Positions 2,635-23,656 of a DNA stretch of 64,000 nucleotides are shown here, one piece after another (positions within the stretch are counted from its first letter, which is position 1; each line of letters opens with the position of its first letter). The position numbers were made by a program, and so were the translations under genes. The notes beneath the pieces are model-generated. The model was given only the letters and a program-made list of their open reading frames with translations. It was not told the origin of the DNA and made no database searches. This stretch comes from a bacterium (lineage in GTDB: Bacteria > Patescibacteriota > Minisyncoccia > Phycocordibacterales > CAIZLB01). The stretch spans positions 24,096 to 88,095 of the forward strand of contig JBAXXP010000003.1 in NCBI GenBank assembly GCA_037127815.1, written 5' to 3'.

Positions 2635-3972
2635 ATGATATATATGGAAACAAAAGATCAACGCCAAATTAGCCCTGATTTGAGACAAACCTTATCAAGC
2701 CCTGTAAGGGTGAAATATTGCCTTTATGCGAGGAAATCGACGGAATCTGAGGAAAGACAGATCTTATCAATAGAATCGCAAGTAAATGAGATGTTACAGA
2801 TAGCTGAGAGAGAAGGATTAGAAGTTGTGGACATTAGACGTGAATCGCACTCCGCAAAGGATTCTGGGCAAAGACCTGTTTTTAAGGAGATACTTACAGA
2901 TATCAGAAGTGGAAGATATTCAGGAATACTAACATGGGCACCCGATAGATTATCGAGAAATGCTGGAGACCTCGGAAGTCTTGTGGATCTTATAGATCAA
3001 AAATCACTTATTGAGATAAAAACCTACGGACAAGTATTCAGCAACTCCCCGAGTGATAAATTTCTACTAATGATTTTATGTTCACAAGCTAAGCTTGAAA
3101 ATGACAACAAGAGTGTAAACGTTAAAAGAGGACTGCGAACAAGATGTGAAATGGGATTATGGCCTGCCCCTGCCCCAACTGGATATTTGAATGAAAAAAG
3201 AATAGATAGAAAAGGATACGTAATGGTTGATACAGAACGTGCGCCTGTTATTAAGAAGATGTTTGAAAAGGTGGCGTATGAAAAATGGAGCGGAAGAAAA
3301 ATATACCATTAGCTTAAATTTGAAATGAATTTCAGAAGTTCAACGAGCAATAAGCCCTTAACTTTGAGCAATATATACAAACTTCTCCAAACACCATTTT
3401 ATTATGGAAAATTTGAATATCCTGTCAAAAGTGGTAATTGGTATATGGGAAAGCACGAACCTTTGATAAACATAGAACTCTTTGAAAAAGTCCGTGAGCA
3501 ACTTAAGAGATCTGAAATAACACACGAGAGAAAAGACTATGCGTTTTCTAGACTTATGACATGTGGGTTATGTGGATCAGGAATATGTGCTGAAGATAAG
3601 TATAAGAAACTCAAGAATGGTGGTACGGCACATTACATATACTATGGATGTAATAGATCAAAGAATTTGGATTGTAAATGTGGATATATAAGAGAGGAAG
3701 AGTTGATAAAGCAATTGGTTGAAATGATAGACAAGATAGAGGTTGATCAGAAGTTTATCAAAGGCAAATTTGAACAAGAACGAGAACGTATGGTTACGTT
3801 CCAAAAACAATTTTACGGAGTCAAACAATCAAAGCTTGAGATTGAATTTGATTCAAAGAAGTATACTGAGCATGTTTTGACAGAAGGGACAGTTGAGGAG
3901 AAAAGAGAGATGTTGGCAAATCTTAAGGGTAAAGTTATTATGAAAAATAAGGAAATAATTATTACGCAGTAG
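2635..3972 (+). pseudogene. Large serine recombinase interrupted by a single in-frame TAG at 3310-3312 (ORFs 2635..3312 and 3325..3972 are in the same frame)
   Basis: The N-terminal part (YCLYARKSTE...SIESQ...TWAPDRLSRNAGD) and the C-terminal part (zinc-ribbon CGLCGS...YYGC) are collinear with the intact paralog at 19034..20347. 3325-2635=690 is divisible by 3 and only a TAG separates the two ORFs. TAG is a normal stop elsewhere in the window. Confidence 0.7.
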
Positions 3973-4609
3973 ATGCAGATGGTTTATTATCATTACGCGC
4001 ATCAATAAGTACAATATTTTCACCTTCTGATATATCTAATTCTTTAAAAATTTTGCGTACACGAATCAACTCTGATTCAGACATGTATACAATAACAAAA
4101 AATCCTTTCTGTGTCTGATTAGCCTCTTTATAAATTTCAAGTTGTTTTTGAAGATTATTCTTTAGATGTTTATTTTTTGCTAATTTAAATTCTACAAGAG
4201 ATGAATCCTTGTTTCCTCTGGAAATCTTATAATCAACAGGACCTCTCCCGTTGTTGACCTCACTATCAACACTTGATTGACTACCACACCAAACAAGACG
4301 AAACATAACTTGAATATCGCTTTCTTTAGCAACGACAGAACCACTTCTTGTATAAAAAATACGATACCCATCATTTTTTTCGATTGAATCCTTTAGGTAT
4401 TTGATACGAGCCATTGCTTCTTCATACGTTGAACCTGTAGAAGCATAAAAGTCAGTCTCATCAGCAAGTTTATAGCTAAAGTTTTTTGCAATATCAAGGA
4501 ATAGAGTTTCCGATAATTCTACTTTTACCGAACTAGCATTAACAGCGTCTTCACCTCTCTCTTCTTTTCTTTTAATGTAGTAGTCTATGGCTTCAGGGAA
4601 TTTCTTCAA
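3962..4609 (-). CDS. Hypothetical protein with a possible PD-(D/E)xK nuclease-fold motif (VDYKI...VEFKLAK); only a TTG start
   Basis: The 215-aa ORF starts at a TTG with no ATG in frame. Its frame stays open about 45 codons further upstream and overlaps the end of ORF 4711..5490, which suggests a frameshifted single gene. Confidence 0.35.
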   Translation of the reverse strand: MKKFPEAIDYYIKRKEERGEDAVNASSVKVELSETLFLDIAKNFSYKLADETDFYASTGSTYEEAMARIKYLKDSIEKNDGYRIFYTRSGSVVAKESDIQVMFRLVWCGSQSSVDSEVNNGRGPVDYKISRGNKDSSLVEFKLAKNKHLKNNLQKQLEIYKEANQTQKGFFVIVYMSESELIRVRKIFKELDISEGENIVLIDARNDNKPSASTA

Positions 4610-4710
4610 AGTTTCATAGACAGCTTTGTGTACGTCTTTCTGGGAAGCAGGTTTTTCTTTACCTTTTTTTGTCTTTTCCCTATGAGGAAGTTGGCTACGA
4701 AAATAGTTGT

Positions 4711-5490
4711 CTAGCTGTGCGCGAAGTTGTTCATTTGAATTGCATAAGGAATATCTTCAAAGTGATCAAAAAGGTCTGTCTTATTAATCCATATATCATC
4801 TTTGGTCAAAATATCCCGAGGAGTCAAAATGATATAATCACCATCAATATAAGGAAGTAAATATTTACGATCCTCCCACACTTCTGTTGTGTAATTAAAT
4901 TTAACCTTACGGACAGTGATTTCTCTTAATTTTTCTTTATTAATATTTTCAACAGCAAAATCTTGAGTATAATTTAAAAGATAATATTTTATTAGATTGG
5001 TTGTAAAATCACTAATACTATCGCGACCGACCCCTTCTTTGATTAAACACAGCTTTTCTAAGTGACTACTTGTTGTTACCACTTCTTTTCCGAAATCTCT
5101 AAATATATTTTCTAAATTTCCATTGAGAGCGGAGGCGAATTTATTGCCTAAACCACGACCTCCGTTTCCATTATTAGTAAATCCAAACCAATTTTGTTTT
5201 ACTTCAGGAAAACGGTACCAAGCACTTAATAGTCCAGGATTAATTGAACTTGATGATTTGTTTTTAAGAAAACGGAGGTACTCAATTATTTCCTCGTGAA
5301 GTTCTTGATACTCTGTTTTTTTACTATGAAACAAGAGAAATGGATCTATGAACAGTGGTAAATCAGCAACGAGTGAAATATTAAAAGCTCCATATTGCTT
5401 AATCACCTCTTCTGAAACATCAAAATAATCTGAAAAGTATAATTTTATTTTGAGTTTCTGTTTTTTTTCCATGTGTAATACGGGGCTCAA
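4711..5490 (-). CDS. Hypothetical protein (possibly the N-terminal part of a frameshifted larger gene together with 3962..4609)
   Basis: 259-aa ORF of ordinary composition. No motif recognised. Confidence 0.45.
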   Translation of the reverse strand: MSPVLHMEKKQKLKIKLYFSDYFDVSEEVIKQYGAFNISLVADLPLFIDPFLLFHSKKTEYQELHEEIIEYLRFLKNKSSSSINPGLLSAWYRFPEVKQNWFGFTNNGNGGRGLGNKFASALNGNLENIFRDFGKEVVTTSSHLEKLCLIKEGVGRDSISDFTTNLIKYYLLNYTQDFAVENINKEKLREITVRKVKFNYTTEVWEDRKYLLPYIDGDYIILTPRDILTKDDIWINKTDLFDHFEDIPYAIQMNNFAHS

Positions 5491-5804
5491 CGCTCTGTGG
5501 TCTTGCCTCGATACTGCGCTGACTCGTGCTGACTGTCACGGTCTTGAACCTACGTGGTGAGACCCCACAACACACTTAGCAAACCCTTCTACTCTCTATA
5601 TGAGGCGTCTCGGTCTCTAGGCTGTTTTAATGAGTAAGGTAAACAGAGCATATTTCACCCGTCTCGGTCACTGTCTCATTTTGATATATGGACTACCTCC
5701 CTCAGTATTATTATATACGGCTATTTATCAAAAAAGAGACAAATGAGACACTATAAAGGAGATATCCGTCGGTGTCTCATTTATAAGCCAATCAAAGCAT
5801 ATAT
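5491..5804. promoter_or_regulatory. GC-elevated divergent intergenic control region with iteron/operator-like repeats
   Basis: The motif tgtctcattt is direct at about 5675 and 5773 and inverted (aatgagacac) at about 5739. The motif cgtctcggtc occurs twice. A 10-bp inverted repeat aatgagacac...gtgtctcatt lies just upstream of the start of ORF 5805. It sits between divergently transcribed genes. Confidence 0.35.
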
Positions 5805-6449
5805 ATGGCAGTATCAGATAAATTAGTAGAAGAAATTAAACAATTAGCAAAGGAGAAAGGTGAAGAAATGGATGACGCAAAAGCTCGTGAAGGTGCTGAG
5901 AATTTAGTGGGTTTCTTTGATATTTTATGGAAACTTGCAAAAGAAGATTCAAAGAAAAAGAAAAGATTAAAAACAGAACCAGATGGATTCCCTGTAGATG
6001 GGACATACACCTGTCTTGTCTGTGGTAATAGAATAGATGAAACAAACGGATGGTATGACTGGTATGGTCACACCTGCCTTATTTGTCGTAAGGCAGTTAA
6101 AGATAAAACTATACCAACGTTCATCTTTCAACACAGGAATAGTTATTTTTCCATTTCGAGTTTAAATTACACTTTTAATATTAAACATCAGACCGCTAAG
6201 AAGTATATAAAGGAAGGTAAATTAATTCCAAGGATTATTTTAAATGACGACGGGACACCGCATGACTATATATTTCTTAAAAAAGAAAATCCTCAACTAA
6301 TTGAGAAATATTCTCCAGAGAGAAAATCATATGACAGACACAGATCTAAAGTTTCTGACGCTTGGTCTAGAAAAGCAAAAGCTGAAATGAAAGAAGAATT
6401 TAAAAAACATCAAGAAAGGATAAAAAAGATTACAGAAAAATATCGCTAA
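5805..6449 (+). CDS. Hypothetical zinc-ribbon protein (CLVCGN...HTCLICR), lysine-rich C-terminus
   Basis: 214-aa ORF with a Cys4 motif. Convergent with the terminase-like gene, with a 4-nt overlap. Confidence 0.45.
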   Translation: MAVSDKLVEEIKQLAKEKGEEMDDAKAREGAENLVGFFDILWKLAKEDSKKKKRLKTEPDGFPVDGTYTCLVCGNRIDETNGWYDWYGHTCLICRKAVKDKTIPTFIFQHRNSYFSISSLNYTFNIKHQTAKKYIKEGKLIPRIILNDDGTPHDYIFLKKENPQLIEKYSPERKSYDRHRSKVSDAWSRKAKAEMKEEFKKHQERIKKITEKYR

Positions 6450-7501
6450 TATTTCTCACCTACATTTGGTATAACGGTCTTGCCATCCCAGCCATCAGGA
6501 TCATCAACGGTTTGATCCTTATACATAAGCCTGCCTTTAGCCCATAAAGGTGCGGATATTTTGAAATGCTCTTTTTTGGTAGCCGTATTTGTTATTGGAT
6601 AGTCCACATACTTTAATTTATGCACAGAGTCTCTAACTGATGAAATATTCAATTTATAGTCCCTATCAAACATGCGGTACAGGTCATTGCCTTGTATGTC
6701 AGGTAAATCATCTCGTATTTTCTCAACGTCTTTGATTGAATATCTTTGTGGCCACAATATTCTGTTTTTATTATCAAGTAATGGATATGCATAGTACTTA
6801 CCACGAAGCTTGTTCTTTACCATGAGTTTTTTCAATCGAATCATAAGTGAATCATAATTCAATAAATTTCCAAGTACTACAATGTTCGTATTTTCATCTC
6901 CAATCGACATAATCTCATTTAAAAACCACTCATAGAGCATATTTCTTTTATTCTTGTCTTGAACCGAAACAATATCCTCCATATCGTCACAGATAATCAA
7001 ATCAGGTCTTTTGTTTTTATACTTTAATCCTCTAATGTTTTGAAGTGAACTAATACACATGATTTTTGCACCATATAGAGGTAATTCAATAGAGTATGCA
7101 CCCCACTCTGTTGTACTTGATTTGAATGGACCAAGATCCTGCTTGAGTAATTCATTATCTTCAAGCTCAGATTTTATATTTTGAAAATGTGCTTGAGATT
7201 GAAGTTTACTTTGACTAACTATTAGTACATTTTTCTTTTGGTGTTTTCCAAGAATCGCCCACATCACATTTGAAAGATTAAGAATTGTGGATTTACCAGA
7301 TCCACGAAACGACATCACAACATTTAATTTTTCATCATATTTTTCAGTCATACGAAACATCTCTTTATGAAAGAACGCATACGGATAGTTTATGTGGTGC
7401 GCAAGATAGATACTACAAAATGCCTCATGTGATTCTTTCACAAGTTTTCTTCTGACGTTACTATCAGAAATTATATTTTGCAGTATCTTTTCTTTATCCA
7501 T
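6446..7501 (-). CDS. Phage terminase large subunit-like ATPase (ATPase domain only, no recognisable nuclease domain)
   Basis: Walker A VMSFRGSGKST and Walker B-like DLIICDDMED. The N-terminal FHKEMF...motif is typical of TerL. At 351 aa it is about 100-150 aa shorter than a full TerL. Confidence 0.5.
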   Translation of the reverse strand: MDKEKILQNIISDSNVRRKLVKESHEAFCSIYLAHHINYPYAFFHKEMFRMTEKYDEKLNVVMSFRGSGKSTILNLSNVMWAILGKHQKKNVLIVSQSKLQSQAHFQNIKSELEDNELLKQDLGPFKSSTTEWGAYSIELPLYGAKIMCISSLQNIRGLKYKNKRPDLIICDDMEDIVSVQDKNKRNMLYEWFLNEIMSIGDENTNIVVLGNLLNYDSLMIRLKKLMVKNKLRGKYYAYPLLDNKNRILWPQRYSIKDVEKIRDDLPDIQGNDLYRMFDRDYKLNISSVRDSVHKLKYVDYPITNTATKKEHFKISAPLWAKGRLMYKDQTVDDPDGWDGKTVIPNVGEKY

Positions 7502-7522
7502 ATGTGTTCTTCGAAAAGGCTA

Positions 7523-7909
7523 TTAAGTAAATAAGACTAGAGCACTTTTCAGCGTCTTCTCTTGTTCTTTTGAAAGAGGTATTTCTTTCCTTGGTTTTAG
7601 GAGAGAATGTTCTTTTTCTTTGAGTAAAAATCTTTGATGATTATGACGAAGCCAAAACTGTACGGCTTGAAACTTTTTATCTTTAATGAGACCAATTAGC
7701 TGTGATTCTGTCATGTCATTTATCAATTCAATACCGTCTTCGATAGCTTGTTCTGAATCCCTTAAAAACTCAGGATCTTCATTCCTCCACCTATAGTAGG
7801 TTGCACGAGCTATGTTTGATTTCTTACATGCCACTTCAATAATTGGTATTGATCGAATGTGTCCAAGCAGTCGATCCTTATCCTTTTTTGTCGATTCTTT
7901 TTTAGTCAT
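7523..7909 (-). CDS. Small HTH protein, terminase small subunit-like
   Basis: 128 aa with an HTH (KKSNIARATYYRWRNEDPEF). Immediately upstream of the TerL-like gene on the same strand. Confidence 0.4.
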   Translation of the reverse strand: MTKKESTKKDKDRLLGHIRSIPIIEVACKKSNIARATYYRWRNEDPEFLRDSEQAIEDGIELINDMTESQLIGLIKDKKFQAVQFWLRHNHQRFLLKEKEHSLLKPRKEIPLSKEQEKTLKSALVLFT

Positions 7910-7911
7910 GG

Positions 7912-9234
7912 CTAGTTAATTTTCTTACGCTTCTTGCCAGTCTCTTTCTCCCAACGATTCATAATTACTTCAGCATAGACATGAGATTTTTCCATGATAA
8001 AGCAACGTCGACCCATCTTCACAGATGCAATTAAAGTACTTCCGCTTCCTCCAAACGGTTCAAGAATTAAATCGTTTCTTTTCGTTAATACTTTAAGGTA
8101 TGGAATAAGTAGCTCTAGTGGTTTTGTGCCAAAGATAATTTCTTGCCCTGATGATTTTTTATCTGCGGCGGTATGAGATATGAAATCAGTTGGACATATC
8201 TTCTTTCCTTTTTCATATGGTTCAAAATGTGGTTTACCTGAAGTGGCAAAGATTGCATTCTCATATTCATTTTGAAACAATCCCTCCTCAGGCTCAAGAT
8301 TGAGATCTACTTCTCCTGAAGTTCCAACAAGTGCAATATCTGTCTTATTGAAAAACTTATTTGAAGCAGAAAAACCTTGCATACGATTAGGAACATGCCA
8401 AGTGATTGTGTTTCTATATTTCCAATGTACTTCGAGTGCATTCCAGATGGTTCTAAGGTTTTTTGGATTCTCAAAGATAATGATTGAGAAGTCAGGTTTT
8501 TGTACCTTTGCAACATTTGCCATCCAAAGATCCGAGAAATTATCAGGCAAGACATCAGTCTCTAAATATCTGCGATTCTTCTTTGATCCAAATCCAACTG
8601 TTGGACCATCCTTACCTCGACCTTTACCTTTTAAATAGTCTAAGATATATGGTGGATCAGTTAGCACCATATCTACCTTGTTATCTCCCATTAGTTTCAA
8701 CATATCGGCTTCTATTGTGGAATCGCCAATCATTAATCTAGAGTCTCCGAGTTCATAGATATCGCCCTTTTTTGCTTCAACTTTAATGTCGAGCTTATCG
8801 AGTTCTTTTTGTAAATCAAATTGCTCTTCATTTTTCTCGATTGGAAATATGTCATCAATGTCTTCTGAGGTAAAACCAACATCAAGAAGAATTGAGCTAT
8901 CAAACTCAGCGAGCATCTCAAGATCAAATTCTCCTTGATTGCGATTAAGTCTGAGGTTAAGTTCAAGCTCTTTTTCAAGAGGTAAATTCACAAATACTAC
9001 TGGCATATTTTTATATCCAAGTTCCTTGCATACATCAACCCTAAAATGACCTCCAACAATTATCATCTTTCTATCTTCGTGATTATTTACAATAATCGGA
9101 TCAACATTACCGAAACGTCTAATACTTTCCTTGAGCTGTTCTTTTTGCTCCTTACTCCACTTGCGTGGATTTTTATCATTTACCTTCAACTCGTCGATTG
9201 AGACGTACTCAATCTTTAAACTTTCTTTATTCAT
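7912..9234 (-). CDS. ParB-like nuclease domain fused to an N6A/N4C DNA methyltransferase (beta class); phage-type orphan methyltransferase
   Basis: The N-terminus has a ParB-N motif (KNPRKWSKEQ...GGHFR). The methyltransferase motifs are DPPY (IV) then FGGSGST (I), in beta-class order. This fusion is frequent in phage genomes next to terminase genes. Confidence 0.8.
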   Translation of the reverse strand: MNKESLKIEYVSIDELKVNDKNPRKWSKEQKEQLKESIRRFGNVDPIIVNNHEDRKMIIVGGHFRVDVCKELGYKNMPVVFVNLPLEKELELNLRLNRNQGEFDLEMLAEFDSSILLDVGFTSEDIDDIFPIEKNEEQFDLQKELDKLDIKVEAKKGDIYELGDSRLMIGDSTIEADMLKLMGDNKVDMVLTDPPYILDYLKGKGRGKDGPTVGFGSKKNRRYLETDVLPDNFSDLWMANVAKVQKPDFSIIIFENPKNLRTIWNALEVHWKYRNTITWHVPNRMQGFSASNKFFNKTDIALVGTSGEVDLNLEPEEGLFQNEYENAIFATSGKPHFEPYEKGKKICPTDFISHTAADKKSSGQEIIFGTKPLELLIPYLKVLTKRNDLILEPFGGSGSTLIASVKMGRRCFIMEKSHVYAEVIMNRWEKETGKKRKKIN

Positions 9235-9644
9235 ATACTTACTAGATAATTAATTTGTAATCTAGAAGCAACAAAAAACCGCCTACAATATCAAAGTAAT
9301 CTTTAATACCAAAGGCGGGTTTTCATCTATTGTATCGACCTGTGTTAGTAATAGAAAAAGCTTTAACCTTTGGGGTTAAAATTTCTACTACTTACTTGGT
9401 CACCCTCGTCAGTCCACTATCATGAGATAGTTTCTGAAGTATTTTCCAAATAGGTTTATATATAGAACTAGCTAAGGATGCGTAATTATATCCATCTTAG
9501 CCGATACGATATGAGACTGTCTAAGTGCTTCTGCGTCTATTTTAGCACGAAATATGATACAGCAAATGTCTTATTTCTGTTTTTTAGCACACCTTAACTT
9601 TTTCCCTTATTCGATAGGGTTTTTTGAATGTGAAATGTGGATAA

Positions 9645-10061
9645 CTATTTTTTAAATAGTATAGATTCCTGACTTTTAAACTCAGATTCACGCCCAACAA
9701 TGGGATTGCCATTTACATCAGCACTGTAGCTGACAATCTCTTTGTTTGTATATAAATCATAAATATATTGAGTAACTATATTTGAACCAATATAGCCACC
9801 TTTGTATAAACATTGGTTTGTTTCCTTGTTGAATCTATACTCGGAATTCATTATTCCGTCTCTTAATTCTTTTTTATCTTTTTCGAATCTTTCAGATCCA
9901 ATTTGCTCACATTTCTGAATATTAGCGATTTCTTCTTTTCTTGTTTGTTCAGTAGTTTCTCTTTTATCCTGTCTTGGTAAATACCAAATAAAATAGTATC
10001 CAACGGAAAGCGAGATAACTATCAGAGCAGTATTAACTGCTTTTTGTAATTCATTATTCAT
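9645..10061 (-). CDS. Hypothetical small membrane-anchored protein
   Basis: 138 aa with an N-terminal TM segment (ALIVISLSVGYYFIWYL). Confidence 0.4.
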   Translation of the reverse strand: MNNELQKAVNTALIVISLSVGYYFIWYLPRQDKRETTEQTRKEEIANIQKCEQIGSERFEKDKKELRDGIMNSEYRFNKETNQCLYKGGYIGSNIVTQYIYDLYTNKEIVSYSADVNGNPIVGRESEFKSQESILFKK

Positions 10062-10065
10062 AAGC

Positions 10066-10235
10066 CACTGTAGCGGTTTTAGCCTATTAATTTAATAATA
10101 GGCGAAGAGAATTGAGTCGTTAGACAGAAGACTCCTCGCCATTGCGACAGAGCTTGCGCCCTGCCCATATCTAGTTTCCCAGACATGACCGCTACAGTGA
10201 CTCTGACGAGGAGTCTTCCATACTGTAGCGGTTTT
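10066..10235. repeat. Interleaved repeat element: A(cactgtagcggtttt) - hairpin - B(gaagactcctcg) - A'(accgctacagtg) - B'(cgaggagtcttc) - A(actgtagcggtttt)
   Basis: Read directly from the sequence. The 12-bp motif occurs direct at 10066, inverted at 10188 and direct at 10222. An independent 12-bp inverted pair lies at 10127 and 10207 and interleaves with the first set. A small perfect hairpin gcctatta/taataggc lies at 10082-10103. A'-A plus TTTT forms a terminator-like hairpin on the plus strand. Confidence 0.55.
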
Positions 10236-10371
10236 GATATTCCGACCATATCCTAGAGAATTAAGGGTTCTTTAGGGGTTAGGTCTTTGTTGTTAATGAA
10301 ATGATAGCAGAAAATTTGCTATCTGTCAGTAGCTTAGATATGAGGGTTTGCGAAGCAGAAGTTACCAACAG

Positions 10372-15169: not shown

Positions 15170-15174
15170 ATAAT

Positions 15175-16314
15175 CTAAATTAATTTTGCCAATAATTGAT
15201 CTCTTTGTGACCTTAGAGAAATGTTTTCAACATATAACGATATTTGTTTTTCAAATAAGTTACTTAGAATTTTGTCAGCTTTTCTGAGTAAGGATTCATT
15301 AGGTATTAGAACTAATGCGTCACTTATATGGTGTCTTTGTATGTGACCCATAGTCGTAGCTTTTCCTTCTGCAATCGCTTTAAATTCTTGAAGGTGTCTT
15401 TGTAAATATTGATACACAAACCATTTTGGGTAATACTGCGAAGTGACTTTGAATATATGCTGATTCAAAATTCCATCTTCACCAATCCACACCATTACAG
15501 AAAGACTCCCAGACCAAGCAAACAAGATATCTCCCTTTTTGATAATGTATTTTGTGTCTATATTTTTAGTTGCTCGATCAGAACTTTTATCAATACCGGA
15601 ATTCATCTCTCGTATTTTGATAACAGGAAATGAATCTTCCTGTCTTTCAGCTGGATATTTTTGTGAAGCAACTCCATTTAAAAAATCAGCTATTTTATCT
15701 AATCTTTTAACCTCCCACCCTTCAGGAATTTCTCCTAAATCACTCTCAACCATTTTCACATTCTCATACCCTGGAAATTTGAAATCAATAAGCCATTCAT
15801 TAAAAATAGTCTGGGCTGTTGTTTCAAGATTTTTTATAATAATATTATTATTTTCTATTTTTTTATCATAAGCACTCAAAATAGAGGCAATCCTTTTTTG
15901 AGTTTCTTTACATGGTGTTTCTACACTAATACTGTAAATAGTATCTCGATTTAAACCAGGAACAGCAGAATCGCCTCCATATCTAGGTAGATTAATTCTT
16001 TGTAGAAGATAGTAAACATACTTTAAATCAAAATCTTCAGAAACTTCATCGACATAGAAAACTGTATCTATTGGATATGATTCCTTTTCTGAATATGATA
16101 ACGATCCGACATTTCCTTTACGACCAATTATTATGGATGGTTTTTTTACCTTTGATTCATTATGAAAACCTACTAAACCACTTGATGCATAAACAGGAAT
16201 AGCACCCATTACTCGATTACGTTCAGGTAATCCAAAACCATATTTAATTTCCATCAAATCAGAAATTTGATGTGCTGTTTTTTCAATATTTATTTGTTCC
16301 AATAATTTAGTCAT
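15175..16314 (-). CDS. hsdS: Type I RM specificity subunit (HsdS), two target-recognition domains
   Basis: 379 aa with the typical HsdS repeat architecture and conserved central/C-terminal helical spacer motifs. Confidence 0.85.
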   Translation of the reverse strand: MTKLLEQINIEKTAHQISDLMEIKYGFGLPERNRVMGAIPVYASSGLVGFHNESKVKKPSIIIGRKGNVGSLSYSEKESYPIDTVFYVDEVSEDFDLKYVYYLLQRINLPRYGGDSAVPGLNRDTIYSISVETPCKETQKRIASILSAYDKKIENNNIIIKNLETTAQTIFNEWLIDFKFPGYENVKMVESDLGEIPEGWEVKRLDKIADFLNGVASQKYPAERQEDSFPVIKIREMNSGIDKSSDRATKNIDTKYIIKKGDILFAWSGSLSVMVWIGEDGILNQHIFKVTSQYYPKWFVYQYLQRHLQEFKAIAEGKATTMGHIQRHHISDALVLIPNESLLRKADKILSNLFEKQISLYVENISLRSQRDQLLAKLI

Positions 16315-16315
16315 A

Positions 16316-17152
16316 TTATTTTTTACAATTAGAACACAGGTTCATACCTGTTAACGAAATTGATGCTGAATTAAAATCATAAGGATATGTTTTCCCACAC
16401 TTGCTACAAATCTGATTTCCTAACACATAGTGATTATTATTTAATAAATCAGACTTACCAAGAGAGAAGGATGTACTGTCTCCTAAAGTTGTAGCACTAA
16501 ACAAAACAGATTCTCTTTCTTTTTTCATGTTTTTAATCTGTTTTTCTAGCTGTGCAATTTTTTTACCAAACCCCTCTTGCTCTACAGCTGTTGCTGATTG
16601 AGCTAATTTCATTTTTTGATCTAACAAATCCATAACAAATGCTCTGTATGTTTCATTAAACTTTTCTTGAACTTCTTTTTCACTCCTAAGCGTTGGATCT
16701 ATATCAATCCAGTCCTCATACCCAGAGTTAACATTTAATTCAATCACAGATAAATGACGATCAATCTCATTTAGTTGAGGTTTTACATCTCTTGTTGCTT
16801 TCTTACTAAAGGTCATCACCCAGCAACGTAAACTACCAATTTGTTTTTGTATCGACTGCAAATTACGTACAGCAGACTGACCTTTTTTTCGAAGTATATT
16901 TTCACCTGTAACTTTTGAATACTCATTTTGGAATATACCTCCGGCTATTCCACCAGTTATACTTCCGAATACAGCTAAAAGATTTGAAAATAATTCATTT
17001 GTTTTAAACCATATAGATAGACCGAGTGAGATGATGGTAACTACTATAAAAACAAGGAACCATGGATCAAAAATCATGTTTGCAAAACTATTCCATTTTT
17101 GTTTAAGTCTAGTCATATATTTAAAATCCAAGTTCTTTAAGATTATTTTCAA
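16316..17152 (-). CDS. Hypothetical membrane protein: 2 N-terminal TM helices, coiled-coil, C-terminal zinc ribbon; embedded between hsdM and hsdS
   Basis: TM segments FLVFIVVTIISLGLSIWF and LLAVFGSITGGIAGGIF. C-terminal CSKCGK...CSNCKK. It overlaps the hsdM end by 32 nt and lies 1 nt from the hsdS start. Confidence 0.5.
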   Translation of the reverse strand: MKIILKNLDFKYMTRLKQKWNSFANMIFDPWFLVFIVVTIISLGLSIWFKTNELFSNLLAVFGSITGGIAGGIFQNEYSKVTGENILRKKGQSAVRNLQSIQKQIGSLRCWVMTFSKKATRDVKPQLNEIDRHLSVIELNVNSGYEDWIDIDPTLRSEKEVQEKFNETYRAFVMDLLDQKMKLAQSATAVEQEGFGKKIAQLEKQIKNMKKERESVLFSATTLGDSTSFSLGKSDLLNNNHYVLGNQICSKCGKTYPYDFNSASISLTGMNLCSNCKK

Positions 17153-18914
17153 TTTGTTTCTCTAGCTCTCGACCATTAGCAAAAGCATCTCTCAGTTCCA
17201 CCGAAAGCTTTTGCATTTTTTCTTCAAATGAAATTCCATCATCTTCTACATCAGCAAGTCCAACATATCTTCCCGGAGTTAATACGTATCCATTCTTTTT
17301 TATTTCTTCCAAATTTGCTGATTTACAAAAACCAGAAATATCTTCATATTTTTCTACACCTGATTCTTCACGCCAAGCTTTAACAGTATCTGTTATTTTT
17401 TTAATATTTTTTTCATTAAAAACTACCTGCTTACGTGAAATCTGTTCAAACGTATCTCGAGCATCAATAAACAAAGTTTCTCCAGATCGTTTTCGAAAAC
17501 GGTCACCACCTTTGTTTTTTGATAGAAACCAGAGAGATACAGGAAGTGATACGTTGTAAAAAAGTTTTGATGGACAAGAAATTATTACATCAACCAAATC
17601 TGCTTCTATAAGTTTTTGACGAAGCTCTCCTTCTTTACCAGATACAGCTAATGCACCATTAGGCATAACAAATCCAGCTTGACCATTTGGAGCAAGGTGG
17701 TGAGTAAAGTGCTGTACCCAGAGGAAGTTTGCATTTCCACTTGGGGGTATCCCAAGAAAGATTCTTGGATCATTATCAGAAAGTTTTGAAGGATCCCATT
17801 CTGCATTAAACGGAGGATTTGCAATTAAAAAATCTGCCTGGAGATGAGGAAACATATCTTTGTAATAAGTATTTCCAAGTTCAATCTTTCCTGAGAGACC
17901 ACGAATAGCAAGATTCATTTTACATAAACGAAGTGTTGTTTGATTACTTTCTTGTCCACTGATAGAAAGTTTTGAAGGATCCATCTTGTGATCTCGTAGA
18001 TATTCACCCATAGATACAAACATGCCCCCACTACCACAAGCAAAGTCTGCTACACGAGCATTTTCATACGGCTCAAGTATTTCTGTAAGAAGCTTAACAA
18101 TTGATCTAGGGGTAAAAAATTCCCCTCCACGTTTTCCTTCAGATGAAGCAAACTGACCTAGGAAGTATTCATAGATACGACCAAGAATATCTTTCTCACG
18201 ATCAAAATCATGGTCAAAAGAAATTTGTGAAAAGATATTTACAAGTTCTCCAAGAACAGTATGGTCAAGGTTTACTTTGGTATATACACGAGGAAGAACA
18301 TTTTCAAGTTGAACTGGATTATCCTTTTCGATGAGTTCCATTGCAGTATCAAGAATTTTTCCAAGATCAGAACTCATTGTTTTTGTTTGCAAAAATTCCC
18401 AACGAGATTTTTCTGGCACATAGAAAACCCCTTCTGATGTATAGAAGTCTTTTGTTTCAAGAATCGCTTTTCGTGCTTCTTCAGTAGGAACATAAAAGTC
18501 TTCGTTTTTTGGATCTTTTGTCAGATCAGCAAGAACTTCTCTTCGTTTATAGAATGAATCAGATATATATTTCAAAAAGAGAAGACCGAGAACAATATTC
18601 TTGTACTCTGACACATCCACATTGCCTCGCAATTTATCTGCCGCCATCCAAAGTTCTTTTTCAAAACTAAGGTCGTGGTGATGATTCTTATCTAAAACCT
18701 TTTTAGTGACGCTTTTTTGCTGTTCACTAATACGGTTCTGTATATCTTCTGAAAGAGAAGACATTGGGATCAAATATGTTGGTTTAGAGGGGTCTCCTAT
18801 ATTTTCAGCCTTAATTTCACCTTTTTTGATCTTTTGGTGAATGGCTATACGACTAATACCCAACATCTTTGCGAGTTGTGTAGGAGTTACAAATTGTGTT
18901 TTATCGATTGACAT
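17121..18914 (-). CDS. hsdM: Type I RM methyltransferase subunit (HsdM) with an N-terminal HTH extension
   Basis: Catalytic NPPF motif (LIANPPFN) and AdoMet motif DFACGSGGMF. The first ~70 aa (LAKMLGISRIAIHQKIKKGEI) resemble a MerR/excisionase-type HTH that HsdM normally lacks. Confidence 0.9.
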   Translation of the reverse strand: MSIDKTQFVTPTQLAKMLGISRIAIHQKIKKGEIKAENIGDPSKPTYLIPMSSLSEDIQNRISEQQKSVTKKVLDKNHHHDLSFEKELWMAADKLRGNVDVSEYKNIVLGLLFLKYISDSFYKRREVLADLTKDPKNEDFYVPTEEARKAILETKDFYTSEGVFYVPEKSRWEFLQTKTMSSDLGKILDTAMELIEKDNPVQLENVLPRVYTKVNLDHTVLGELVNIFSQISFDHDFDREKDILGRIYEYFLGQFASSEGKRGGEFFTPRSIVKLLTEILEPYENARVADFACGSGGMFVSMGEYLRDHKMDPSKLSISGQESNQTTLRLCKMNLAIRGLSGKIELGNTYYKDMFPHLQADFLIANPPFNAEWDPSKLSDNDPRIFLGIPPSGNANFLWVQHFTHHLAPNGQAGFVMPNGALAVSGKEGELRQKLIEADLVDVIISCPSKLFYNVSLPVSLWFLSKNKGGDRFRKRSGETLFIDARDTFEQISRKQVVFNEKNIKKITDTVKAWREESGVEKYEDISGFCKSANLEEIKKNGYVLTPGRYVGLADVEDDGISFEEKMQKLSVELRDAFANGRELEKQIENNLKELGF

Positions 18915-19033
18915 ATGTTAAGTATAGCATAGTGTATAAAATAATGCAACTTAACACATGTAAAGTTACCAACATCTGAGAGACTGGGGCGCTCTAGACT
19001 CATAGGGCAATCAGCGTCATTAATGTAGTTGTA

Positions 19034-20347
19034 ATGAAAATACAAAAACCGCTACAAGTGACTCCTGACGAGGTCGCACCAATTAAGTACTGTCTTTACG
19101 CACGTAAATCAACCGAGCAAGAGGATAAGCAAGCATTATCAATAGAATCGCAGGTTAAAGAGATGATAATTCTAGCCGAGCGAGAGGGGTTGGAAATAGT
19201 CGAAATTAAGCGAGAATCGCACTCCTCCAAGGAGGTTGGGCAAAGACCTGTGTATAACGAGCTTATCAATGAAATCAGACAAGGCAAGTTCAACGGAATT
19301 CTGACATGGGCACCTGACAGGCTAAGTAGAAACGCTGGAGACCTAGGATCAGTAGTTGATCTTATGGATCAGAAGCTTCTACATGAAATAAGGACTTATG
19401 GACAGAAGTTTACAAATAATCCAAATGAAAAGTTCTTACTGATGATTCTTGGTTCACAAGCAAAGCTTGAGAATGACAACAAGATGGTAAATGTGAAGCG
19501 AGGACTTAGAGCGAGGTGTGAGATGGGACTATGGCCGTCCGTTCCCCCAACTGGGTACCTAAGCCACTCTGATAGAAATAAAAAATGTGAAGTATTACCT
19601 GATGAACAGAGAGCTTGTGTGATTAAACAAATGTTTGAAAAAGTTGCATACGATGGATGGTCAGGTCGAAAACTTTTCAAGTGGTTAGAAGAAGATATAC
19701 GATTTAAGACAAAACATGGAAAAGCACTGACATTGAGTAATGTATACATAATTCTCAAAAGTACCTTCTACTATGGTGAGTTTGAATATCCAAAAGGAAG
19801 TGGACAATGGTATGTAGGAAAACATGAGCCAATCATAACCAAAGATTTATATAACCAAGTACAGGATAAGATAACAAATGATCACTTAACGAGAACCCAA
19901 GATAAAGAGTTTGCGTTTACTAAGATGATCACCTGTGGACTATGTGGATCAGGAATTACCGCTGATGAGAAATTCAAGAAACTCAAAGACGGAACAACAA
20001 ACAGATACGTATATTATGGATGTACAAAGTTTAAAGATAAGGATTGTCCGTGTGGATACATACGAGAAGAAGACCTAATCGAACAGTTGGCAAATATATT
20101 AGATACAGTTTCGTTAGATGAAATAGGTATGAAATATAAGATCAAAACTGAAATTGAGTCACACAACGAATTTCAAGAGTCAGTATTAGGAAAGGAGGTG
20201 AAAGAGAAAACAAAGATTAAAGATGTTGATATAAGAAACTATGCAAAGCATATTTTGCGGAAGAGACCACTGTACGAAAAGAGAGAACTACTAAGTCATT
20301 TAAGAAGTAAATTGGTACTAAACGAAAAACAAATTAAGATTAAATAA
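19034..20347 (+). CDS. Large serine recombinase (intact), paralog of the pseudogene at 2635..3972
   Basis: 437 aa. The resolvase catalytic domain has a YARKST...SIESQ serine motif. It is followed by a recombinase domain and a zinc ribbon (CGLCGS...YYGCTKFKDKDCPCGY). Confidence 0.85.
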   Translation: MKIQKPLQVTPDEVAPIKYCLYARKSTEQEDKQALSIESQVKEMIILAEREGLEIVEIKRESHSSKEVGQRPVYNELINEIRQGKFNGILTWAPDRLSRNAGDLGSVVDLMDQKLLHEIRTYGQKFTNNPNEKFLLMILGSQAKLENDNKMVNVKRGLRARCEMGLWPSVPPTGYLSHSDRNKKCEVLPDEQRACVIKQMFEKVAYDGWSGRKLFKWLEEDIRFKTKHGKALTLSNVYIILKSTFYYGEFEYPKGSGQWYVGKHEPIITKDLYNQVQDKITNDHLTRTQDKEFAFTKMITCGLCGSGITADEKFKKLKDGTTNRYVYYGCTKFKDKDCPCGYIREEDLIEQLANILDTVSLDEIGMKYKIKTEIESHNEFQESVLGKEVKEKTKIKDVDIRNYAKHILRKRPLYEKRELLSHLRSKLVLNEKQIKIK

Positions 20348-23300
20348 CCTCTGGAGTGATCGCATCAGAATTAATCTTTTCGGCATTTACTACTTCTGCA
20401 AGATAATCGTCTAAGACTTTGAAAACAGGTGCGAGATCCTCTCTATATGTTGCTGTGTAATTACCAACATACAACGTCTTTTCTTTTTCATTAAGATTCA
20501 TTGCCTTTATGGCGCTAGAATTTTTTTGCCAATATTCAGCTAATTTTTCCTTATGTAAAACCTTTGTAAATTCGTTAATGTGAGGAATATAATTCCGACC
20601 ATCTTCTCTTGCAGATGCAAATACACTTGCGAAATTTCTTAAAAGATAATCGATGAAATGCTCTACATTCTCGGGTGATGAAGGATTAAAGCACACGTCA
20701 AAGATGTAATCATTTATAGCATCAGCAATTTGATGACGGTCATCGTTTCCTGTTGGATCATAATATCCACAACCAACACCACTGCTTATTATTGAATTTC
20801 CAAGTTGATAAATAGTAAAGCCTGTTATTATACTCTTAAGTACAGCGACTTGTTTATCTAAATCACCTTGAGAAATCTTGCTATTAATGACTTGTGATTC
20901 TAGATAGTCTTTATACTGGCCTGCTAAATCTTTCAGTTCTAGATTTGATATTTCCTCAAAAATGTTTCGCTTAGTATCTATATACTGCTTTTTAAAAATA
21001 TCGAAGACTTTCTGTGATATTTCCCGCATTTCTTCCTTGGCAATCACTTGAGTATTTCCTTCAGTTGGTGCACCCTTATCAGAATGTTTTGATAATGCAC
21101 GACTCAAATCAAAAATATCTCCACCTCTGTCAGCACTGCAATACAAGCGAAACGCCATAAGATCGTAGAGTCCGAGAACACCTCTTGTCGGTAATGAAAG
21201 TTTTTCCAAAACACCACAGCCAGAGTGTTCTCCTTCTCCGAAAATCCATTCAGCAATTTCCTTTATGTTTTTTTCTGTATTCCCAGAATGTTTTCCTGAA
21301 TCATCACTCCATCCAGCATCATTCAATAGACGTATCAAGAATAGATCTGAGTCTTTTCTTAATCCTACACCAATATTCTCTATTTCAATATGCGAATAAT
21401 CAGGCAGATTATCAAGTAAATGGGTAATAAGTATATTACTAATATTTGGAGGTAAACTTCGAGCATTGTTTACTATAATTCGCCACAGCTTTGCACGAGT
21501 AAACTCACCTTTATCAAAGGCAAATTTCGGGTCAGCAAATGCATCTTCAATAGTTTTTGAACCTGAGGCTATCTCGTCTTTCCAGTTAGCGTAAAACCTA
21601 TGCTGTTCTGTATCTTCAGGTTTAGCAAATTCGACTATTAATCGCAAATACGCTTCCAAATTTCTTCCATTTGTCCATCCACCATTAAAACAGGCATATG
21701 AGGTTTTAATATCTTCTGATACACCATCTATACGAGCATACGTATCTCGGTGCGGAAACTCTGCATTTGTACCAAGTCTTACATTAACATCAAAAATCCT
21801 ATCAAGAAGAAATTTTTGACGACTCATGTCGGGAAAGTGTTTTATATATTCAGTGTAGTATGTTGAATTTTTATACTCTGATTCACTAAATGATCCTCTT
21901 CTCTGACTACTGTCCTCTATAGGATATCCATCTTCATGAGGTAGAACTAACGAAAAAAAACCTCGACTACCGTTTGTCTCGCTATCATAGATTTTTCTAA
22001 AAATATTTGGAAAGTGAATATAAATCAAAAGGAGGTGAATAAGATCTTGCTTATCAAAGTCAGTATTTTGAAAATCTGTACTTTCAAGTTCAAAAAGAAC
22101 CACCGTATTAATCAGTCTTTTAAGCTTTCTGACATCGCCAATAAATGGAAGATAGTTATGGTAGCCTGACGATTTATATATATCAAGTAAGCCACCTAAT
22201 GCCTGACGAACAAGAATAGGATCTACCAACTTAGTAGAAACAGCCTTATCAAGATTATCTGAAACATACTTAGCAAGATTTTCTTTATCAAGAAAAAGAC
22301 TAATTTTTATATTTACAAATTTTTCAAGAAACTCGCTTATCTTTTCAGCGTCAGGTGTCTCAGATTCAAGAATCCCTATATTTTCTGTATCATAACAAAG
22401 CACATAAGAAATATTTGGTAATACAAAGCTCTTTCTAATAACAAATAAAATATCCTTTATTTCAGAAAAAGTCATTCTATCTAAATCATCAACAATAATA
22501 ATAACTTTCTTTTTAAATCTTTTTAATACGGCATTTAAATCATCAAAAGCTTCGTCTGCGGTATAATCTACAGTCAATGTTGGTAAACTAAAACCAAAGA
22601 TTGAAAAACGATTAACCTCTCTAAGTAATCTAGCATATCTCGAAATCAAAGGTTTTATTTCTGGTACGAATGAATCTTTTTGAATTGAGTGTATTAATCC
22701 ATCAACAAAAACCTCCAATAAGTTTTTGCTCCCAGCATACCTCAAGGGGTTAAACTTAAAAATAACAGTTTTATTACTCTGATTTTCATCCCAATGTTCT
22801 TTACAAAAATTTATAAAAGAGGATTTACCAATACCCCAAGGAGCATCAACTCCAAAGACAAAACTTTCTGAGTTTCCATTATTGAAGACTCTTTCAGCAA
22901 ATTTATTAGCCTTATCAGCAAGATTGAGCAGATCATTTTTTCTTTCCTTAAGTTCATGATCTGAGAGAAAATTTGATTCAGTTTCTTTTTTCTTCCAAGA
23001 AATTGATCTGAAAATAACAAAAGCAGTAAGGATTACTGGAGCAAAAACTAAAATCAGTAATTGCTGAAATGAAAATGATATGACTAATTTTTTATACCAA
23101 TCATATAAAAATCCTCCCCATGCTACATCTATCCAAATACCGAAACAAAGAGCCGTTAAAACATCAAAACGATAGCTTCTATAAAATTTACACAGATCTT
23201 GAACAGTATCTCGTATCAACACATAAAACAATGTCGTAATAATACCCAATGACGCCCCCAAAATAATCCATCCTTCATGACCAAACTTCGATATTGCATT

Positions 23301-23531
23301 GTTTAATTGAAGAGAAAAAGCTTGTGAAAAATAGAAAACCTCAACAAATAAAATACCAAAAAATACTGTTTTTATAATGACAATAAGATTCGCCGTAATA
23401 AGCCCAGGATCAGAAAAATAGTCCTTAAATTTAGAATATTGTTGTTGGGTCCTTTTCAAAAGTGTAGTTTGCTTCATAACGGCAATTATACTGTTATTTT
23501 GAAAAAGTTCGAGCCCATGACTGGTGCTCAA
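20340..23531 (-). CDS. KAP-family P-loop NTPase with N-terminal multi-TM region
   Basis: 1063 aa with the KAP Walker A VDAPWGIGKSSF. Four to five hydrophobic helices precede the NTPase domain. Confidence 0.75.
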   Translation of the reverse strand: MSTSHGLELFQNNSIIAVMKQTTLLKRTQQQYSKFKDYFSDPGLITANLIVIIKTVFFGILFVEVFYFSQAFSLQLNNAISKFGHEGWIILGASLGIITTLFYVLIRDTVQDLCKFYRSYRFDVLTALCFGIWIDVAWGGFLYDWYKKLVISFSFQQLLILVFAPVILTAFVIFRSISWKKKETESNFLSDHELKERKNDLLNLADKANKFAERVFNNGNSESFVFGVDAPWGIGKSSFINFCKEHWDENQSNKTVIFKFNPLRYAGSKNLLEVFVDGLIHSIQKDSFVPEIKPLISRYARLLREVNRFSIFGFSLPTLTVDYTADEAFDDLNAVLKRFKKKVIIIVDDLDRMTFSEIKDILFVIRKSFVLPNISYVLCYDTENIGILESETPDAEKISEFLEKFVNIKISLFLDKENLAKYVSDNLDKAVSTKLVDPILVRQALGGLLDIYKSSGYHNYLPFIGDVRKLKRLINTVVLFELESTDFQNTDFDKQDLIHLLLIYIHFPNIFRKIYDSETNGSRGFFSLVLPHEDGYPIEDSSQRRGSFSESEYKNSTYYTEYIKHFPDMSRQKFLLDRIFDVNVRLGTNAEFPHRDTYARIDGVSEDIKTSYACFNGGWTNGRNLEAYLRLIVEFAKPEDTEQHRFYANWKDEIASGSKTIEDAFADPKFAFDKGEFTRAKLWRIIVNNARSLPPNISNILITHLLDNLPDYSHIEIENIGVGLRKDSDLFLIRLLNDAGWSDDSGKHSGNTEKNIKEIAEWIFGEGEHSGCGVLEKLSLPTRGVLGLYDLMAFRLYCSADRGGDIFDLSRALSKHSDKGAPTEGNTQVIAKEEMREISQKVFDIFKKQYIDTKRNIFEEISNLELKDLAGQYKDYLESQVINSKISQGDLDKQVAVLKSIITGFTIYQLGNSIISSGVGCGYYDPTGNDDRHQIADAINDYIFDVCFNPSSPENVEHFIDYLLRNFASVFASAREDGRNYIPHINEFTKVLHKEKLAEYWQKNSSAIKAMNLNEKEKTLYVGNYTATYREDLAPVFKVLDDYLAEVVNAEKINSDAITPEVI

Positions 23532-23585
23532 AAATATTCTTCCTAAACGACCATTTTAGGTGTTTAGGTAGGTCTCACTAAACTG

Positions 23586-23656
23586 CTGGGAGACTAGGAA
23601 TCGAACCTAGATTAAAAGCTTCAAAGGCTTCTGTCCTACCTTTAGACGATCTCCCA
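23586..23656 (-). tRNA. tRNA-Gln (anticodon UUG)
   Basis: Manual fold of the minus-strand sequence TGGGAGA TC GTCT AAAGGTA GGAC A GAAGC CTTTGAA GCTTT TAAT CTAGG TTCGATT CCTAG TCTCCCA G. It has a 7-bp acceptor with the U1:A72 typical of bacterial tRNA-Gln, a G73 discriminator and a GGTTCGATTCC T-arm. CCA is not encoded. Its 3' end points toward the KAP/recombinase island. Confidence 0.8.

Follow-up and report, generated by a model that had tools for sequence, protein, structure and literature searches.

We analysed a stretch of 64,000 nucleotides (the window) from contig JBAXXP010000003.1 of the patescibacterial assembly GCA_037127815.1, in which two genes for large serine recombinases (LSRs), LSR-left and LSR-right, lie on the same strand, 16.4 kb apart, to the left of a tRNA-Gln(UUG) gene. 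The original prediction had read this region as one accessory island of roughly 21 kb, bracketed by the two recombinases and ending at the 3′ end of the tRNA. The window was matched to ENA contig k141_181641 (record position = window position + 24181), which gave a further 19 kb on the left; positions in that flank are negative here, and those of locus L181 were converted as window = 1522 - L181. The recombinase genes, the elements upstream of them and the tRNA are as follows.

2583–2637, plus strand: upstream element of LSR-left, a degenerate copy, with an AACCTAC block, CTAGACT at 2606–2612 and CGTCATTAATG at 2627–2637
2644–3972, plus strand: LSR-left, a pseudogene with an in-frame TAG at 3310–3312 (Pfam Resolvase, Recombinase and Zn_ribbon_recom on the two halves)
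18964–19025, plus strand: right copy of AGTTACCAAC (18964–18973), then the upstream element of LSR-right, with CTAGACT at 18994–19000 and CGTCATTAATG at 19015–19025
19034–20347, plus strand: LSR-right, intact, 437 amino acids (PF00239, PF07508 and PF13408; phrog_95 integrase, E = 7e-64)
23585–23656, minus strand: tRNA-Gln(UUG), intact, the chromosomal anchor of the array described below (ARAGORN, Rfam)

Both LSR genes have the orientation and spacing that had been predicted for them, and the left one is indeed a pseudogene. The two are colinear over their full length, at 53% amino acid and about 72% nucleotide identity, and LSR-left is broken by a single TGG to TAG change at a codon that specifies Trp in LSR-right. 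This stop is present in every independent assembly that has the gene and is therefore not a sequencing error; TAG is a normal stop in this genome, where it ends the hsdR gene. The start of LSR-left is likely the ATG at 2644 rather than 2635. In both proteins the catalytic domain (PF00239, E = 4e-19 in LSR-right and 8e-20 in LSR-left) contains the motif Y-A-R-K-S-T, and the Recombinase and zinc ribbon domains (PF07508 and PF13408) lie C-terminal to it. The nearest solved structure to LSR-right is that of SPbeta SprA/YokA (E = 3e-13). No tyrosine integrase of the PF00589 type was found among the genes of the window or of L181.

Extent of the accessory DNA at tRNA-Gln(UUG)

ARAGORN and Rfam agree on the tRNA gene, whose 3′ end faces the LSR genes. 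To its right lie core genes, namely dnaX, a pilin-like gene, msrAB and dus; the relatives of DnaX place the host among the Patescibacteria/Paceibacterota. Three close relatives (L006, L007 and L008), whose DnaX proteins are 85–90% identical to that encoded here, are syntenic with window positions 24982–36500; the contigs of L006 and L008 reach the same tRNA-Gln, and that of L007 stops short of it. In L006 and L008 the similarity to the window stops exactly at the 3′ end of the tRNA, beyond which stand unrelated genes, without LSR or restriction-modification (RM) genes. This is the comparison with relatives lacking the island that the original prediction had called for, and it upholds the claim that accessory DNA abuts the tRNA 3′ end. 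Synteny with L006 restarts only at window -11183, with a RhuM gene (87% nucleotide identity), an 84-amino acid open reading frame (ORF), a DUF6629 gene and a 167-amino acid ORF. Relative to this closest genome, the extra DNA amounts to 34.8 kb (window about -11183 to 23584), as against 1.36 kb in L006 itself. The region is foreign accessory DNA, a composite array of about 35 kb at the 3′ end of tRNA-Gln. The estimate of 21 kb was accordingly too small; the left boundary lies outside the window, as had been suspected, and the type IIS RM genes at 1–2483, which had been put forward as possible members, belong to the island. Base composition was dropped as an island marker, there being no GC or skew signature that sets the region apart.

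A direct repeat of the tRNA-Gln 3′ end at the distal end of the island had also been predicted, and it is absent from the window and the 19 kb to its left. The 24-mer at the 3′ end of the tRNA has no second match in the window with up to three mismatches allowed, and self-comparison of the 37.5-kb island, including 13 kb left of the window, likewise reveals no repeat of the tRNA 3′ end. No tRNA-like fragment was found at the left edge of the outer unit (A) described below or at its junction with the inner one (B).

Two tandem units and their ends

Four modules are present twice in the array, namely the LSR, a Cys-rich protein of 206 or 214 amino acids (40% identical), a ParB-methylase (64%) and a helix-turn-helix (HTH) protein (36%). 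They occur in the same order in both copies, in which an end motif with the 206/214-amino acid gene is followed by the ParB-methylase and HTH genes, a cargo slot (slot X), the LSR, a second slot (slot Y) and a conserved right-end segment of about 90–120 nt. We therefore consider it fairly probable that the array consists of two diverged sister elements arranged head-to-tail, A at about -10380 to 5623 and B at 5624 to 23584. Each LSR stands near the tRNA-proximal end of its own unit with the other shared modules, which argues for two acquisitions of diverged sisters rather than for duplication in situ. For annotation, this means that the two recombinase genes are not the borders of one island, and that the island is composite and about 35 kb long. 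Element B, of 18.0 kb, adjoins the tRNA and has the intact LSR; element A, of about 16 kb, has the LSR with the nonsense mutation and is probably older or decaying. The parts of the array that define the ends of the units within the window are the following.

5500–5623, plus strand: right-end segment of A, ending in GAGGCGTCTCGGTCTCTAGGCT (5604–5623), with the core CGTCTCGGTC at 5606–5615 (alignment with L162 and L173)
5624–5804, plus strand: left-end region of B, with a second core CGTCTCGGTC at 5660–5669, 54 nt after the first (motif comparison with A)
5805–6449, plus strand: left-end gene of B, encoding the 214-amino acid protein, with a four-Cys motif and no family match; 40% identical to the 206-amino acid gene of A
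23492–23584, plus strand: right-end segment of B, ending in TAGGTCTCACTAAACT at the tRNA 3′ end (alignment with L088; stop of similarity in L006 and L008)

Across 83 kb the core CGTCTCGGTC has only three exact copies, each on the plus strand: one at the left edge of A (-10378) and two at the A/B junction (5606 and 5660). The motif GAGACAAATGAGACA stands at -10347 in A and at 5736 in B, ahead of the homologous 206- and 214-amino acid genes, respectively. Repeats of AATGAGACA precede the 214-amino acid gene, in direct orientation at 5736–5750 and inverted at 5672–5680 and 5773–5781, and the same set of left-end motifs precedes the 206-amino acid gene of A at -10378 to -10333. At the right end of A, GAGGCGTCTCGGTCTCTAGGCT closely matches the sequence GAGCCGTCTCGGTCACCATAGGCT of L162, which there abuts a tRNA-Gln(CUG), and the right-end segment aligns with a junction in L173. 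The positions of the cores and end motifs, together with the L162 match, place the A/B boundary at about 5623/5624. At the tRNA-proximal end of B, positions 7409–7574 of L088 align with window 23492–23657 at 75% identity, over both the terminal segment and the tRNA. The arrangement at the A/B junction recurs in an IMG/VR contig that is unrelated to the window (3300014205_009253), with two cores 54 nt apart, the blocks GCTGACTGTC, CCCTTCTACTC and CTGTCTCATTT, and a pair of LSR genes 16.7 kb from each other; the 54-nt spacing of the cores is also seen in L112. A scan of IMG/VR for two CGTCTCGGTC cores 38–50 nt apart, as in a free attP-like site, returned only the contig already known and unrelated high-GC matches.

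Left of A, a right-end-type arm with a single core is seen at L181 11888–12030 (window about -10510 to -10366). Further left of this arm lies a minus-strand serine hydrolase gene (-11101 to -10544), which is absent in L006.

The repeated ends bear directly on the original view, in which a single island integrated once at tRNA-Gln and the recombinase, with its control site, was later duplicated in place so as to bracket it. Two same-strand LSR genes with a common upstream motif, in an island that abuts a tRNA, would fit that view, and the IMG/VR contig, with its pair of LSRs at a spacing of about 16.7 kb, might point to a design with two recombinases. We nevertheless regard a single integration as very improbable. 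The LSR copies are only 53% identical in amino acid sequence and 72% in nucleotide sequence, the three further modules are duplicated as well (36–64%) and in the same order, the end motifs are repeated at the A/B junction, and the island runs about 11 kb past the left LSR, which is itself dead. In addition, the motif upstream of the LSR genes is family-wide, with spacers that are not conserved, as described in the next section.

The recombinase family, its upstream motif and LOOT RNA

A pattern scan derived from the alignment of the two LSRs identified 238 relatives in metagenome contigs, 80 of which were fetched, and IMG/VR contributed 12 close relatives (44–88% identical). In about 44 of 92 loci, a ParB-methylase, a terminase small subunit (TerS)-like HTH protein and often a terminase large subunit (TerL) of 490–500 amino acids precede the LSR on the same strand. 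A downstream tRNA gene is present in 38 LSR loci and is convergent with the LSR in 37 of them; the tRNAs are those for Gln, Arg, Lys, Leu, Ser, Asp and Glu, and 11 of them are only 72–175 nt away. At least 13 loci have a motif of the CNTCTCGGT type, with one mismatch allowed, at a distance of 20–32 nt from the tRNA 3′ end. The 28–31 nt directly 3′ of the tRNA are nearly identical in L015, L031, L043 and L071, whose tRNA sequences differ, and this segment therefore belongs to the element.

Orthologues of LSR-right (81–84% identical) are found at tRNA-Gln(UUG) in L088, L092 and L093. Beyond the tRNA, L088 has an ATP synthase operon in place of dnaX, which argues for targeting of the tRNA rather than for inherited synteny. 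The order dnaX to tRNA-Gln(UUG) is kept in about 50 of 80 Patescibacteria species representatives (L009–L081), and an LSR is present at this site in few of these roughly 50 species (L011, L031 and L043, and in part L078). A search of the available literature returned no account of LSR elements at tRNA genes in Patescibacteria. Two loci of the family differ in their layout. L157 has two nearly identical LSR genes (5902–7272 and 8836–10197), 2.9 kb apart and with identical upstream elements, which would fit a recent tandem duplication or two very small elements. In L138 a group I intron (8341–8615, minus strand; Rfam, 69 bits) follows the LSR at a distance of about 1 kb, the place taken by a tRNA in other loci, and it may interrupt a tRNA gene that ARAGORN missed.

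The motif shared by the two LSR genes of the window, CTAGACT-N14-CGTCATTAATG, occupies 2606–2637 and 18994–19025 with identical spacing. The original prediction was correct that both genes have it, and misplaced it at about 20 nt before the ATG; it ends 6 nt before the start codon on the left and 8 nt on the right. The same motif had been taken as a sign that the recombinase was duplicated together with its control site. This does not hold, as the spacing is the same in 60 LSR loci from unrelated metagenomes, over which the upstream element aligns without gaps for 49 nt. Ten positions are invariant in these loci (C15, T16, G18, A19 and C20, forming CT.GAC; G37, C39, A40 and T41, forming G.CAT; and T45). 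The bases that form the palindrome CATTAATG vary across the 60 loci, and the palindrome was rejected as the functional core. A third block, GTTACCAAC, lies 8–10 or 18–21 nt upstream, giving two spacing classes about one helical turn apart. Reading the motif as a sigma-70 promoter was also abandoned, since a consensus scan finds no plus-strand promoter upstream of either LSR. The signal for an RNA hairpin around CTRGACT is not convincing, with only 52% of cells paired, similar values in slid controls and only the invariant GAC/GTC triplets recovered by RNAalifold, and we propose no structured RNA there. On the pattern of conservation, the motif is probably a protein-binding control region (operator or promoter) of the LSR gene; it is neither an element end nor a trace of duplication.

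A small RNA gene is a further component of the family.

10146–10285, minus strand: LOOT small RNA gene (Rfam RF03000; 51.9 bits against a gathering score of 46.4, E = 7e-7)

In B this gene separates the phage-like module from the type I RM operon; the Rfam scan found no LOOT gene in A. In the related LSR loci that were scanned, LOOT is present in 13 of 23, with scores of 48–100 bits, and its position varies: immediately 3′ of the LSR, between the TerL and LSR genes, or upstream of the gene for the ParB-methylase. The LOOT gene belongs to the element family. A search of the available literature returned nothing on the genetic context of LOOT RNA. By eye, a promoter-like site, CTGACA-N17-TATCAT, is seen just upstream of LOOT on the minus strand.

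Cargo, mobility and relation to known systems

The remaining genes of the two elements within the window, with the left border of slot X of B, are these.

1–459, minus strand: 5′ part of an AlwI-like type IIS restriction endonuclease (599 amino acids, the remainder left of the window; PF09491 RE_AlwI, a called gene in L001 and L181); slot X of A
486–2483, minus strand: fused double D12-class N6-adenine DNA methyltransferase (PF02086 in two stretches, E = 2.8e-57); slot X of A
3962–4609, minus strand: DUF8371; slot Y of A
4711–5490, minus strand: DUF8370; slot Y of A
6446–7501, minus strand: truncated TerL, ATPase domain only (phrog_38, E = 6e-37)
7523–7909, minus strand: HTH protein with a weak resemblance to TerS (PF13022, E = 8e-7; TerS phrogs, E about 6e-5)
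7912–9234, minus strand: ParB_N nuclease-like domain fused to an N6/N4 DNA methyltransferase (Pfam, PHROGs), 64% identical to the A copy
9645–10061, minus strand: predicted membrane protein of 138 amino acids, no family match (Pfam, PADLOC, PHROGs)
10360–10369, plus strand: left copy of AGTTACCAAC, 2 nt before the hsdR stop; left border of slot X of B (exact search)
10372–18914, minus strand: type I RM operon, slot X of B (Pfam, PADLOC), consisting of the genes in the next five lines
10372–13392, minus strand: hsdR
13397–15169, minus strand: AriA/OLD/GajA-like ABC-type ATPase, inserted between hsdR and hsdS
15175–16314, minus strand: hsdS
16316–17152, minus strand: gene without family match between hsdS and hsdM, a 278-amino acid ORF from TTG that is called as 266 amino acids in the assemblies
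17121–18914, minus strand: hsdM
20340–23477, minus strand: KAP-family P-loop NTPase, PifA/QatA-like, 1045 amino acids (PF07693, E = 1e-39; PADLOC PifA, E = 1.6e-27); slot Y of B

The phage-like module, the type I RM operon with its inserts and the KAP NTPase that had been described between and beside the LSRs are thus all present, as identified with Pfam, PHROGs and PADLOC. The order of genes at slot X of A (AlwI on the minus strand, D12 methyltransferase on the minus strand, LSR on the plus strand) is the same in L119. In slot Y of A, DUF8371 and DUF8370 jointly cover one defence-candidate protein of 457–478 amino acids (PDC-M36A / phrog_30194), and they represent either a split gene or a two-gene unit; a DUF8370-like gene also lies between the LSR and a tRNA-Gln(CUG) in L134. 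The TerL fragment of B aligns with residues 13–303 of a 500-amino acid homologue in L163 and lacks the nuclease domain; the Terminase_6C-like C-terminal domain of that homologue, itself a marginal match (22.2 bits against a cutoff of 22.6), has no counterpart in the window. The HTH protein of B is 36% identical to a 125-amino acid gene product of A. The ORF at 16316–17152 overlaps the end of hsdM, and the start of the KAP NTPase was set at the ATG at 23477, giving 1045 amino acids. Left of the window are DUF2130 and DUF2779 genes, the second ParB-methylase and TerS-like HTH genes, an XRE repressor, DUF2188 and DUF3892 genes, a HEPN AbiU2 protein, the 206-amino acid protein and the serine hydrolase; the XRE repressor is accompanied by a putative IrrE/ImmA-like peptidase, on a weak sub-cutoff match. 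No primase or Rep gene was recognised among the island genes.

The two slots were delimited by comparison with L086 and L088, both of which share with the window the ParB-methylase, the LOOT region and the LSR, and the second of which also shares the terminal segment. Slot X, directly upstream of the LSR regulatory region, contains the type I RM operon in the window, an AAA_13 system in L086 and a 932-amino acid SMC-like ATPase in L088. Slot Y, downstream of the LSR terminator, contains the KAP NTPase in the window and a Fic gene in L086, and is empty in L088, where the LSR terminator is followed by the terminal segment. In the 64-kb window AGTTACCAAC has only two exact copies, at 10360 and 18964, which flank the type I RM operon, the right one 50 nt beyond the hsdM start; L086 has the same arrangement around different cargo. 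These comparisons suggest that slots X and Y are exchangeable hotspots, with a presumed function in defence for the genes that they hold. In most members of the family, the same 9–10-mer as AGTTACCAAC is conserved as a block upstream of the LSR gene.

On an alternative account the region would be a hypervariable chromosomal defence island beside a tRNA, built by many independent small insertions and homologous recombination, in which the LSRs integrate no whole elements and act locally, for instance by capture or excision of AGTTACCAAC-flanked RM cassettes or as resolvases or invertases. The exact direct 10-mers that bound slot X directly upstream of the LSR control region speak for it, as do the divergent RM genes that recur upstream of the LSR in L119, L123, L144, L155, L164 and L168, in each case directly next to it, and it would agree with the lack of excision products and of a distinct base composition. 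We consider it unlikely, because it leaves unexplained the 37 convergent tRNAs in 38 loci and the right end that is conserved over seven tRNA types, the occurrence of the same LSR lineage at tRNA-Gln with different neighbours, and the recurrence of left-end and right-end motifs in two units that are colinear. The protein is, moreover, a large integrase-type LSR (phrog_95) and not a small invertase.

The gene content raises another explanation, that the units are decayed prophages of ordinary temperate phages with serine integrases and not members of a dedicated cargo-bearing or satellite-like family. The TerL, TerS-like and ParB-methylase genes are of phage type, the 12 IMG/VR relatives are on contigs called viral, and there are signs of decay in both units: B has a truncated TerL, and A has a broken LSR and perhaps a broken PDC-M36A-like gene. 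Against this, the same compact cassette (ParB-methylase, TerS-like protein, with or without TerL, and LSR) ends at a tRNA in about 44 of 92 loci; the element size of 16–18 kb includes 8–12 kb of cargo; and no capsid, portal or tail gene was found in A, B or the 6-kb flanks examined, in which several genes are without annotation. A prophage origin of this kind therefore appears distinctly improbable.

Returning to the reading of the array as two tandem sister elements, no recombinase other than the LSR was found, and this LSR, an integrase-type enzyme, is encoded next to the tRNA-proximal end. We infer that it inserts the element at the 3′ boundary of the tRNA; LSR-right is the presumed integrase of B. 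The enzyme would recombine a site on the element, formed where its right and left ends are joined, with a site on the chromosome that is located at the tRNA 3′ end or just past it. The short crossover of serine recombinases would leave no displaced tRNA fragment here, which would explain why none is found. A second element entering at the same tRNA would push the first one away, so that A would have arrived before B, and this would produce the 16.4-kb spacing of the LSRs. Slots X and Y would meanwhile swap defence genes, such as the type I RM system with its AriA/OLD-like ATPase, the type IIS RM system, the PifA-like KAP NTPase and the PDC-M36A-like gene. In its widest form, the proposal is that these are Patescibacteria-specific, widespread, small satellite-like elements whose LSR inserts them at the 3′ boundaries of many tRNAs, which stack in tandem, which encode LOOT as their own regulator, and which exchange defence genes through two slots, one of them a cassette site at the 10-bp AGTTACCAAC beside the LSR control region. 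We advance this composite proposal tentatively, as possible rather than probable.

Several points weigh against the reading as two tandem sister elements. The crossover point and the attP and attB sites are inferred rather than defined, and only a degenerate core is common to the two ends of B (GTTTAGGTAGGTCTCAC at one and CGTCTCGGTCAC at the other). At the left edge of A, a right-end-type arm is followed by a single core, for which an extra assumption is needed; this stretch may be an attP-like junction, or what is left of a third element lying outermost in the array. From a canonical LSR, recombination of attP with a site that is already occupied would not be expected, which leaves the formation of the tandem array unaccounted for. 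In L112, the junction at 4896–4985 contains, in the 24 nt before the second core, a fragment of a tRNA 3′ end, which suggests that certain members of the family, unlike the elements of the window, insert within the tRNA gene and rebuild it; a tRNA-like fragment seen by eye in L144 (9932–10052) gave no tRNA match on testing. L006 may bear a right-end scar rather than represent a virgin site, and a multiple alignment of the tRNA-proximal flanks across subfamilies was too diverged to place the crossover or to settle the matter of this scar. Relative to the common cassette, the ParB-methylase/TerS/TerL module of B is inverted and its TerL shortened, so that B may be immobile; considering also the dead LSR of A, the array may be partly or wholly fixed. 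Finally, about 20 independent assemblies of the population show neither an excised circle nor an empty site nor an alternative junction; the contexts of the 214-amino acid gene, LSR-right and the methylase have the same arrangement in all of them, and present-day mobility is therefore unproven.

Among known systems, the staphylococcal cassette chromosome (SCC) elements use the LSRs CcrAB or CcrC at the 3′ end of rlmH/orfX. The elements described here resemble SCC in being presumably LSR-driven, in their position at the 3′ end of a conserved housekeeping gene, in their RM and accessory cargo, and in forming composite tandem arrays that include units with defective recombinases. They differ in that LSR-right is not a Ccr equivalog (122.8 bits for CcrB and 55.3 bits for CcrC, below the cutoffs of 900), the target is a tRNA flank and not rlmH, the hosts are Patescibacteria, and a packaging module and LOOT are present. 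A possible likeness to phage satellites of the P4 type or of the phage-inducible chromosomal island (PICI) type lies in the small size, a presumed integrase with terminase-related genes and, on present annotation, no virion genes, and variable hotspots beside the integrase with RM, Abi-like and PARIS/OLD-like systems. Here, in contrast, the integrase is a serine and not a tyrosine enzyme, and no replication or primase module, helper phage or capsid-redirecting gene was identified.

As with tRNA-targeting islands and tycheposons, the array lies at a tRNA 3′ end, has a recombinase near the tRNA-proximal end, is absent from close relatives, is arranged in tandem and contains defence and accessory cargo. 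Tycheposons have been reported to show tandem junctions, and a minority of them to encode an LSR (10.1101/2020.12.28.424599). In tRNA islands, tyrosine integrases are the rule and the displaced tRNA 3′ fragment forms a direct repeat, according to PMC4701971 and PMC4383910. Unlike these, the present array has an LSR as its only recombinase, no tyrosine integrase and no tRNA fragment that we could find. The phage serine integrases (those of SPbeta (SprA), A118, TP901-1, Bxb1 and phiC31) share the Resolvase, Recombinase and zinc ribbon domains with the LSRs studied here, as well as the location of the gene beside the element end. tRNA sites are typical of tyrosine integrases, and serine integrases have short common cores and mostly protein-coding or intergenic targets (PMC10654092, PMC4701971). 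The LSR family described here, unlike the phage enzymes, is consistently associated with tRNA 3′ ends.

Very few mobile elements have been characterised in the Patescibacteria (Candidate Phyla Radiation, CPR), whose genomes are tiny. If the proposal is correct, a common element family, with more than 230 loci in one metagenome scan, would explain where exchangeable defence systems are kept in these genomes, and would be a counter-example to the rule that tRNA-adjacent islands come from tyrosine integrases. It would also give the orphan LOOT RNA family a concrete mobile-element context in which its function becomes testable, and serine integrases that act at tRNA flanks would be of interest for site-specific genome engineering with conserved natural targets.

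On the far side of tRNA-Gln, between it and dnaX, the minus strand encodes a 148-amino acid membrane protein and a PemK/MazF-like toxin (23778–24885). Both genes are absent in L006 and L008, and the toxin gene is present in L007. This variation among the three relatives indicates that the far side of tRNA-Gln is variable too. A GC-rich hairpin, GCGGCGCGCC-TGAT-GGGCGCGCCGC, is conspicuous at 23741–23768 in a genome of 35% GC; situated just downstream of the 148-amino acid gene, it is probably the terminator of that gene.

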